Of a DNA stretch of 19,733 nt, positions 8,168-8,979 are shown piece after piece. The stretch is from Escherichia coli (GTDB lineage: Bacteria > Pseudomonadota > Gammaproteobacteria > Enterobacterales > Enterobacteriaceae): assembly GCF_003334765.1 (NCBI RefSeq), contig NZ_QOWT01000050.1. One strand, given 5' to 3'. Position numbers and translations under genes: made by a program. Numbering within the stretch: the stretch's first letter is position 1; every line of letters starts with the position of its first letter. The notes below the pieces were generated by a model. That model was not told where the DNA came from and made no database searches. It was given only the letters and a program-made list of their open reading frames with translations.

Positions 8168-8593
8168 TTAAGTACTCGCACCTCCGCAGTCCTGAAACAA
8201 GTCTGGCTGGTAGCTGTAAACAGACTTCGTACATACCGCTCTGCAATAAATCCCCGTACCACAGGCCTCACAGAATTTCTTCCCATGAAAAAACTGCTCA
8301 CACATCACACAATGCCACTCCAGCACGACCGGTAATAGCGATAAAAACATCTCCATATCCTCAATGTAAGGGTGGGACTTTTCCGGATTCAGCACCACGC
8401 AGGCTGCCTTCTGTTGCTCGCTCAGGACATGTAAATCGTGCTCAAACCACGCCCCCTGAGCATCTGTCTGCAAAATCAACCGGCCATGACAGGAAAGGCA
8501 GAAACACTGCCGGATATTTCTGCTGAGCGCAGAATCAGCACTGATAATGTGTTCACCCGGCGTGATCCCCAGCCCCGTTTTTATACCGTTCAT
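8168..8593 (-). CDS. Cys-rich putative zinc-binding protein, 141 aa (paralogue B)
   Basis: Strong RBS GAGGAGGGGG 8 nt upstream; start ATG overlaps the stop of the upstream gene (ATGA). Contains CLSCHGRLILQTDAQGAWFEH...LLPVV...HCVMCEQ...CEACGTG. Shares the ordered motif set CxxC...WFEH...LPVV...HCxxC with the 129-aa neighbour. Confidence 0.6.
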   Translation of the reverse strand: MNGIKTGLGITPGEHIISADSALSRNIRQCFCLSCHGRLILQTDAQGAWFEHDLHVLSEQQKAACVVLNPEKSHPYIEDMEMFLSLLPVVLEWHCVMCEQFFHGKKFCEACGTGIYCRAVCTKSVYSYQPDLFQDCGGAST

Positions 8594-8979
8594 TCTGCCA
8601 CCCCCTCCTCACTGAAGTGCCCGGTATGGCTGTGCGTGCAGTACCGCTCCCCATAATAATCGTGATGACATTGTCTGCAGTGCCGGCTGGCTTTACGCAC
8701 CACGGGTAAGGCATCCGGTACGAATTGCTGCAGACGCTTAATCAGTTGTATCTCCCTGCGTTCCGGTCTGACATAAGGGCACTGCTGACCGTGCTCCGTC
8801 AGCCCGTCGTCAGTGTGTTCAAACCAGGGACGCTCAGTGTCGTATTGCGGGTGGTATCTGAGCGCACTGCCGCAAAGGTGGCAAGTGTAGCGATCGTAAG
8901 GTGCAGTCTGTGCGGTACGGGCACCCGTCAGACGCCCGTTGCCATCAAATGCAATAAAGGATTTTGCGTACATCGTCAT
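8590..8979 (-). CDS. Cys-rich putative zinc-binding protein, 129 aa (paralogue A)
   Basis: RBS AGGA upstream of the ATG; contains CHLCGSALRYHPQYDTERPWFEH...ALPVV...HCRQCHHDYYGERYCTHSHTGH. Homologous to the 141-aa protein by eye. No known family assigned. Confidence 0.6.
   Translation of the reverse strand: MTMYAKSFIAFDGNGRLTGARTAQTAPYDRYTCHLCGSALRYHPQYDTERPWFEHTDDGLTEHGQQCPYVRPERREIQLIKRLQQFVPDALPVVRKASRHCRQCHHDYYGERYCTHSHTGHFSEEGVAE

Follow-up and report, generated by a model that had tools for sequence, protein, structure and literature searches.

The DNA analysed here, termed the window, is a 19,733-nucleotide (nt) stretch of Escherichia coli sequence (contig NZ_QOWT01000050.1), and all coordinates refer to it unless another locus is named. 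Two small overlapping genes, A and B, lie on its minus strand and encode paralogous proteins with predicted zinc sites. The two genes belong to the conserved backbone of a very common class of genomic islands in Enterobacterales.

An overlapping pair of paralogous genes

8590..8973, minus strand: gene A, A-type DUF7828/zinc-ribbon protein of 127 amino acids (aa) from the probable start at 8973; RefSeq WP_000270956.1, "putative zinc ribbon protein"
8168..8593, minus strand: gene B, B-type DUF7828/zinc-ribbon protein of 141 aa; RefSeq WP_001013324.1, "putative zinc ribbon protein"

An earlier note on this DNA, made from the letters alone, gave A a length of 129 aa. This is correct for the longest open reading frame (8590..8979, minus strand), but the probable start shortens the protein to 127 aa. 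The second ATG, at 8973, is likely to be the real start (MYAKSF...) because a GAGGA Shine-Dalgarno sequence at 8982-8986 is situated 8 nt from it, versus 2 nt from the first ATG, and because the RefSeq entry and all orthologues begin at the same ATG. Residue numbers of A used below follow the 129-aa frame. The stop codon of A and the start codon of B share the sequence ATGA at 8590-8593. A GGAGG is found 10 nt 5′ of the B ATG, and its position within the 3′ end of A fits translational coupling of B to A.

A and B are true paralogues. BLASTP aligns the two proteins with 31% identity over 81 residues (E = 2e-9 in a single comparison), and since both match the same two Pfam families, the sharing of motifs reflects homology and not chance. 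The earlier note had proposed two paralogues with an ATGA overlap and an ordered set of shared motifs, and the sequences bear this out. CxxC, WFEH, LPVV and HCxxC are found in this order at residues 33-36, 52-55, 92-95 and 100-104 of A, and at residues 32-35, 49-52, 87-90 and 94-98 of B. The spacing given for WFEH, 10-12 residues, was wrong, as the motif is 15 (A) or 13 (B) residues past CxxC. The A allele of the window occurs on at least 1000 contigs.

Domains and putative zinc sites

The proteins had been described as not placeable in any family. Both are in fact full-length members of DUF7828 (PF25165) plus Zn_ribbon_11 (PF11682, formerly DUF3279). The DUF7828 model is matched by A over positions 1-87 of 87 (E = 2.8e-31) and by B over positions 2-85 of 87 (E = 4.4e-22); the ribbon model is matched with E = 1e-4 by A and E = 3.8e-15 by B. 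PF25165 is present in all 52 of a set of 52 diverse members and PF11682 in 51. The domains are as follows.

8713..8970, minus strand: N-terminal DUF7828 domain of A, residues 4-89, putative CCHC ligands C33, C36, H55 and C67
8605..8682, minus strand: C-terminal zinc ribbon of A, residues 100-125, with C101, C104 and C114; Ser117 in the place of the fourth Cys, His116 and His118 nearby
8342..8584, minus strand: N-terminal DUF7828 domain of B, residues 4-84, putative ligands C32, C35, H52 and C65
8225..8332, minus strand: C-terminal four-Cys zinc ribbon of B, residues 88-123, with C95, C98, C108 and C111

The ligand set of the N-terminal domain, CxxC...(W/Y)FEH...C, is present in both A and B. 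Among the 52 members, the columns that are invariant or at least 90% conserved (B numbering) are C32, C35, F50, H52 and C65 in the N-terminal domain and W93, C95, C98, G104, C108, C111 and G114 in the ribbon. This pattern points to one CCHC site and one four-Cys site. The earlier proposal of a duplicated zinc-binding module is thereby supported, with two putative zinc sites in each protein; zinc binding is predicted from the conservation of the ligands and from the modelled fold. The HCxxC signature is present as proposed, but represents only the first half of the C-terminal ribbon, and the C...CxxC half had been overlooked. In the A allele found here, the last ribbon Cys is replaced by Ser and the conserved Trp before HCxxC by Arg (CTHSHTG versus the consensus CxxCxTG).

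An AlphaFold2 model of B, based on the 52-sequence alignment, has a mean predicted local distance difference test score (pLDDT) of 86.6 and a predicted template modelling score (pTM) of 0.57. Residues 11-70 and 91-120 are modelled at a pLDDT of ∼96, with a weaker linker between them. No solved structural relative of the family was found. The ribbon alone shows weak, non-significant matches (E = 0.1-0.6) to the zinc domains of eL43/L37Ae, MCM and rubrerythrin, and this generic ribbon similarity gives rise to some spurious database names. Many family members are automatically named in UniProt/AFDB as "DNA-directed RNA polymerase, beta subunit/140 kD subunit", "ribosomal protein L37AE/L43A" or "Competence protein". 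The first two labels appear to be zinc-ribbon artefacts; the third probably reflects the CoiA_N-like finger described below.

NCBIfam, PADLOC and PHROGs gave no meaningful match for A or B, and no catalytic domain was found in either protein. Literature searches with the DUF names and RefSeq accessions returned nothing, and no characterised family member was found. The gene family is already catalogued and no new kind of system is shown here. The pairing rule for A-type and B-type genes, the CoiA_N homology and a conserved leader sequence may nevertheless be previously unrecorded.

Similarity to the CoiA N-terminal finger

The Pfam accession next to PF25165 is PF25164, which we take to be the N-terminal finger of CoiA. 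A probe sequence retrieved Bacillus proteins with PF25164 and PF06054, one of which is named "competence protein CoiA family protein". When the DUF7828 family was compared by hhalign with PF25164 N-termini of Bacillus CoiA, a shallow template of six sequences, 50 columns were aligned with a probability of 90.4% and E = 1.4e-6. The aligned stretch comprises the N-terminal strand-helix, CxxC and the (H/W)F(A/E)H motif. CoiA_N is also the top Pfam family that is neither the family itself nor a ribbon, with sub-threshold matches in 9 of the 52 members (best E = 1.3e-3). The DUF7828 N-terminal domain is thus a probable homologue of the CoiA N-terminal zinc finger, as judged from profile comparison. 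The PD-(D/E)XK nuclease domain of CoiA (PF06054) has no match in A, B or the 52 members; the proteins end after the ribbon, and A and B are therefore not CoiA proteins.

Island backbone and cargo slot

The window is part of a CP4-like island, and a nearly identical one in a second E. coli genome (NZ_CP097170) carries a P4-type integrase, insertion sequence (IS) debris, the A/B block, a Hha fragment, an AlpA-like helix-turn-helix (HTH) protein, a YeeP-like GTPase and Ag43. Twelve element types from E. coli, Salmonella, Citrobacter, Klebsiella, Serratia, Enterobacter and metagenomes were examined. The recurrent order is a GTPase on one side, then Gp2/YfjJ, AlpA, A-type gene, B-type gene, variable cargo and integrase; the B-type gene is a usual member of this module and not a constant one. 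Three features of the window are needed here.

7880..7930, approximate, no strand: boundary between the backbone (right) and the variable cargo (left), ∼260 nt past the B stop codon
9345..9944, minus strand: Gp2/YfjJ-like HUH protein of 199 aa, upstream neighbour of the pair, with the HIH motif kept; RefSeq "inovirus-type Gp2 protein"
12536..12742, plus strand: AlpA-like HTH gene, RefSeq "helix-turn-helix transcriptional regulator", 3.5 kb from A and on the opposite strand

In a blastn comparison of the window with a related island (L017), homology starts at 7907. To the left of this point, the window has a YagK/YfjJ gene and a gene for a 238-aa protein, and L017 has McrBC. The cargo right after the pair differs among the elements: it is McrBC in L017, Dpd in L004, a set of SMEK/CTD10/MC6/DUF2326 genes in L011, an SNF2 helicase with an AAA protein and an S8 peptidase in L019, a TIR protein in L021, and Kiwa with type I restriction-modification (R-M) in L024. 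In the window the cargo consists of the HUH-less YagK/YfjJ gene, the 238-aa gene, IS elements and metabolic genes. The pair is on the backbone side of the breakpoint and it is the adjoining slot that varies, so the pair is not exchangeable cargo. Because homology ends ∼260 nt past B and the pair is kept, it represents the last backbone unit before the cargo slot. The A/B pair is thus island backbone and not defence cargo. The homology of the window to two other E. coli islands also stops at 9173, ∼200 nt upstream of A, and this breakpoint suggests that leader, A and B recombine as one unit. Scans of the 6.8-10.5 kb region for repeats, promoters and terminators gave nothing above chance.

The layout fits the general picture of mobile elements with exchangeable defence cargo in E. 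coli (PMC10121019), and the pair marks the conserved edge of a slot that holds McrBC, Dpd, Kiwa, type I R-M and TIR proteins. A role of the pair in phage defence or anti-defence, in which the zinc fingers would detect the nucleic-acid machinery of phage or host, or block it, has some points in its favour. The pair always adjoins a slot that often has defence systems (SMEK/CTD10 among them), B-type proteins evolve fast in the manner of arms-race genes, and antirestriction genes are also carried by the islands. This role is nonetheless improbable. PADLOC (PADLOC-DB 2.0) assigned no family to A, B, the Gp2-like gene, the YagK/YfjJ gene or the 238-aa neighbour. The pair has no effector domain and is kept whatever the cargo, including metabolic genes or IS debris. 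A-type proteins are under strong purifying selection with a nearly invariant N-terminus, and the pair is part of one conserved unit with AlpA and the Gp2-like gene. The earlier idea that the pair is the core of a phage-interference module is therefore not supported.

The same note had placed the pair in an accessory island beside an HUH gene, and this location is supported, the association being kept across genera. The 199-aa protein matches Pfam REP_ORF2-G2P (E = 1e-4) and YagK_YfjJ_C (E = 4e-4), and in Klebsiella and Citrobacter its homologues immediately precede A-type genes. AlpA is directly upstream of the A-type gene in other genera. Klebsiella, Citrobacter, Serratia and Enterobacter have the genes for AlpA, for a conserved protein of ∼200 aa, for the Gp2-like protein and for the A-type protein all on a single strand. 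In E. coli, the Hha-Gp2-A-B block (8168-10316, minus strand) is inverted relative to AlpA and the gene for the ∼200-aa protein at 12821-13438 (together 12536-13438, plus strand).

Upstream of the Gp2-like gene is a Hha/YmoA-family gene (10176-10326, minus strand) that is N-terminally shortened to 46-49 aa; hha of L017 encodes 70 aa. On the cargo side, a 188-aa YagK/YfjJ-domain protein (7130-7696, minus strand) is without the HUH histidines, with PYLMVLLL versus RHYHLIL in K-12 YfjJ. The HIH motif of the 199-aa protein and the loss of HUH in the 188-aa protein suggest that the first is probably an active and the second probably an inactive HUH-like paralogue. No functional study of YfjJ/YagK was found in a literature search. 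The left end of the window, 321-3347, differs from NZ_CP097170 and carries an MFS transporter, an amidohydrolase-type lactonase-like protein and a GntR/HutC-type regulator. An ISL3 transposase (3733-5352) comes after this metabolic cargo.

Distribution

Among the 5,426 complete E. coli genomes searched, 3,854 (∼71%) carry A, with or without the B of the window. The A+B pair of the window is found over at least 80% of its length in 1,407 of them. There are a median of two and a maximum of seven places per genome, nearly all of them chromosomal. In most of the remaining genomes, as in E. coli C, the partner of A is another B-type paralogue. About 2,400 E. coli genomes match the A half only; in each of the 13 records of this kind that were listed, the match spans query positions 454-812, which is also the case for E. 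coli C. The latter strain has a pair of A and B-type genes with a 13-nt overlap (L016, 6557-7353) between cobU and yeeA. This pair is the sole intact gene unit of an island remnant that is heavily decayed and has IS fragments on its flanks.

A profile search of 1.84 billion representative proteins returned only 266 clusters at E <= 1e-3. The named hits, whose taxonomic context was pieced together from exact-protein look-ups, are exclusively from Enterobacterales (Escherichia, Shigella, Salmonella, Citrobacter, Klebsiella, Enterobacter, Leclercia, Cedecea, Buttiauxella, Serratia, Pectobacterium, Budvicia, Providencia, Moellerella and Edwardsiella). The family is rare on plasmids (33 of 72,556), and tblastn gave no match in 50,697 phage records. 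In K-12, tblastn with the window A and B found no relative in CP4-57 and CP4-6, and tblastn with the E. coli C pair found none in CP4-44. The overlapping small K-12 genes yagN and ykgV, by yagK, were considered as counterparts; they are not homologues.

Few uncharacterised E. coli genes are as widespread as this pair, which often has several copies per genome. Its absence from the K-12 cryptic prophages checked may explain why a gene name and functional data are missing. As part of the backbone of common islands, it is a very abundant "known unknown" and not a new system.

Divergence and pairing of A-type and B-type proteins

The two types of protein evolve at different rates. Across elements, A-type proteins (MYAKSFIALDGNGRLTGARTAQ...) have a mean identity of 66%, and B-type proteins of the same elements a mean of 37%. 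The other genes of these elements also differ: AlpA is 72-84% identical (tblastn of the window AlpA against that of L004, L011, L019, L021 and L023) and the Gp2-like protein only 31-36%. The ratio of nonsynonymous to synonymous substitution rates (dN/dS) is 0.12-0.26 for A and 0.22 between intact copies of B. The N-terminus of A is near-invariant as protein, and the synonymous third positions there are 43-66% identical. With synonymous sites so diverged, the A N-terminus appears to be constrained at the protein level.

These values bear on the view that A and B are functionless, decaying remnants hitch-hiking in cryptic islands. The islands are indeed full of IS elements and pseudogenes, in the A allele of the window a Cys of the ribbon and the conserved Trp are gone, and some B copies have deletions or frameshifts. 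But the dN/dS values of A and of intact B speak for selection, both reading frames are intact in thousands of genomes, the A protein is conserved across six genera, and the pair survives intact in the heavily decayed island of E. coli C. That the genes are mere remnants is very improbable.

The two paralogues are found together in 10 of the 12 element types. The genes overlap in E. coli, Salmonella and Serratia, and are separated by one gene in Citrobacter. A natural fusion protein of 238 aa, P0232, consists of an extra DUF7828 N-terminal domain and a complete B-type protein; it is encoded at 6001-6717 of L024 and also in L025 and L026, and is present on four contigs. The co-occurrence and the natural fusion argue that two DUF7828 units work together. 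The P0232 gene is located right after the gene in the A-type position and before the Kiwa and type I R-M cargo. Many A-type proteins outside E. coli have a longer C-terminal tail that ends in CxC (ECVC, LCAC or VCAC), as in L008 (8001-8408), L021 (6001-6423) and L015 (5168-5590). The E. coli A proteins are without this tail.

A conserved leader upstream of A

8991..9030, minus strand: conserved non-coding leader motif of ∼40 nt (CTGCCCGTACCGGGACAGCTGTTGCCTGCGTGTCGTCTGGC)

In six genera, each canonical A-type gene has the leader motif upstream of its start, at 18-57 nt. There is one copy per island, regardless of the gene that precedes it. Its mean pairwise identity across genera is 0.72, versus ∼0.55 at synonymous sites. 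Two other explanations of this conservation were rejected. As a structured RNA, the motif shows no covariation, a folding z-score of 0.24 and no Rfam match; an in-frame coding extension upstream is ruled out by indels whose lengths are not divisible by three. From its conservation and position, the leader is probably a protein-binding or promoter-proximal DNA site, and it may represent an operator or an AlpA-dependent promoter element.

Possible role of the pair

Our preferred reading, which is tentative, is that A and B work as a pair of zinc-finger proteins without enzymatic activity, binding DNA or a protein partner in a module for island regulation, excision or replication. A and B would be made from one translationally coupled message. 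Each protein would have an N-terminal CoiA-like CCHC finger and a C-terminal four-Cys zinc ribbon, and might act as an adaptor that binds DNA or a partner protein within the AlpA/Gp2-like (HUH) module. This module, in turn, would control the expression, excision, replication or transfer of the island. The slow-evolving A might contact something conserved, such as AlpA, the 40-nt leader or a host protein, and the fast-evolving B might supply element-specific recognition. Paralogy, domain composition, the zinc-ligand pattern, genomic position, purifying selection and the lack of a catalytic domain are directly seen; we infer that they bind nucleic acid or a partner, that A and B act jointly, and that the pair is tied to excision, replication or regulation.

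Several points weigh against the adaptor role. Some islands have a single copy (L011, L019), and B decays in some lineages, with a dN/dS of ∼0.6 and an internal deletion in L018. AlphaFold2 of a fused A-(GGGGS)6-B construct gave a pTM of 0.40 and unchanged domain confidence; with few paired sequences and no predicted aligned error, this is a weak test, and it does not support a stable A-B heterodimer. The isoelectric points are 5.2-8.2 for most proteins, near-neutral or acidic, unlike those of typical basic DNA binders. Finally, the function of the CoiA finger is itself unknown (bioRxiv 10.1101/2024.02.06.579203), so the homology carries no mechanism.

A more specific proposal is that AlpA and the Gp2/YfjJ-like HUH protein form the basis of an as yet undescribed mechanism of mobilisation or helper piracy, in which A and B would be the subunits that recognise the site or act as adaptors. 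We consider this unlikely. If true, it would explain the excision, replication or movement of the commonest E. coli islands (CP4-like, carrying Ag43/YeeP/CbtA) together with their defence cargo, and the 40-nt leader would be one binding site.

A and B might instead be small zinc-finger transcription activators similar to P2 Ogr and P4 Delta. A would be the conserved contact to host RNA polymerase and B would provide specificity, with island, cargo or helper-phage promoters as targets. Small zinc proteins without an enzymatic domain, in islands of the P4-integrase type and with AlpA as a neighbour, are consistent with this. A conserved host target would fit the strong cross-genus conservation of the A protein, and near-neutral isoelectric points suit protein-protein contact. 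P4 Delta is a covalent tandem of two Ogr-like units, and the tandem paralogues and the natural fusion P0232 recall it, by analogy. However, Ogr_Delta (PF04606) is unmatched for A and B at E <= 10 and does not appear in the list of families matched by the 52 members. The phage records have no homologue, which leaves the pair unconnected to late-gene control of the P2/P4 type. Nor were P4 or P2 genes seen nearby, and the UniProt label "DNA-directed RNA polymerase beta subunit" was assigned automatically and finds no backing in the present analyses. An Ogr/Delta-like activity is therefore unlikely.

Under the adaptor role that we prefer, the AlpA, Gp2-like and zinc-finger module offers a concrete candidate machinery for island excision and spread, which are poorly understood.

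Comparison with known systems

Generic zinc ribbons (ribosomal eL43/L37Ae, MCM and rubrerythrin) resemble A and B in the C-terminal CxxC...CxxC, and this likeness carries no functional information. Pseudomonas genomic islands with the order IntY, cargo, Gp2-like and AlpA move by jumbo-phage transduction (10.1101/2024.08.29.610337). They resemble the islands described here in having an integrase, a variable and often defensive cargo, and then a conserved block that includes inovirus Gp2-like, AlpA, RadC and HTH genes. The word "zinc" has no match in the main text of that report (10.1101/2024.08.29.610337), and the likeness is one of layout.

P2 Ogr and P4 Delta are, like A and B, small zinc proteins without an enzymatic domain from elements of the P4-integrase type, and P0232 parallels the Delta tandem. 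They differ in that there is no detectable sequence similarity, and the A/B fold has a different, two-domain architecture.

CoiA and the A/B proteins have in common the N-terminal pattern A..G....A ... (F/Y)xCxxC...L....P(H/W)F(A/E)H...C. In contrast to CoiA, A and B are without the PD-(D/E)XK nuclease domain and the CoiA C-terminal region; they are stand-alone proteins of 127-141 aa with an added zinc ribbon. A and B are encoded in islands of Enterobacterales, whereas CoiA belongs to competence regulons in the bacteria where it has been studied. The probable link to CoiA_N gives a second and simpler setting for asking what this finger binds.

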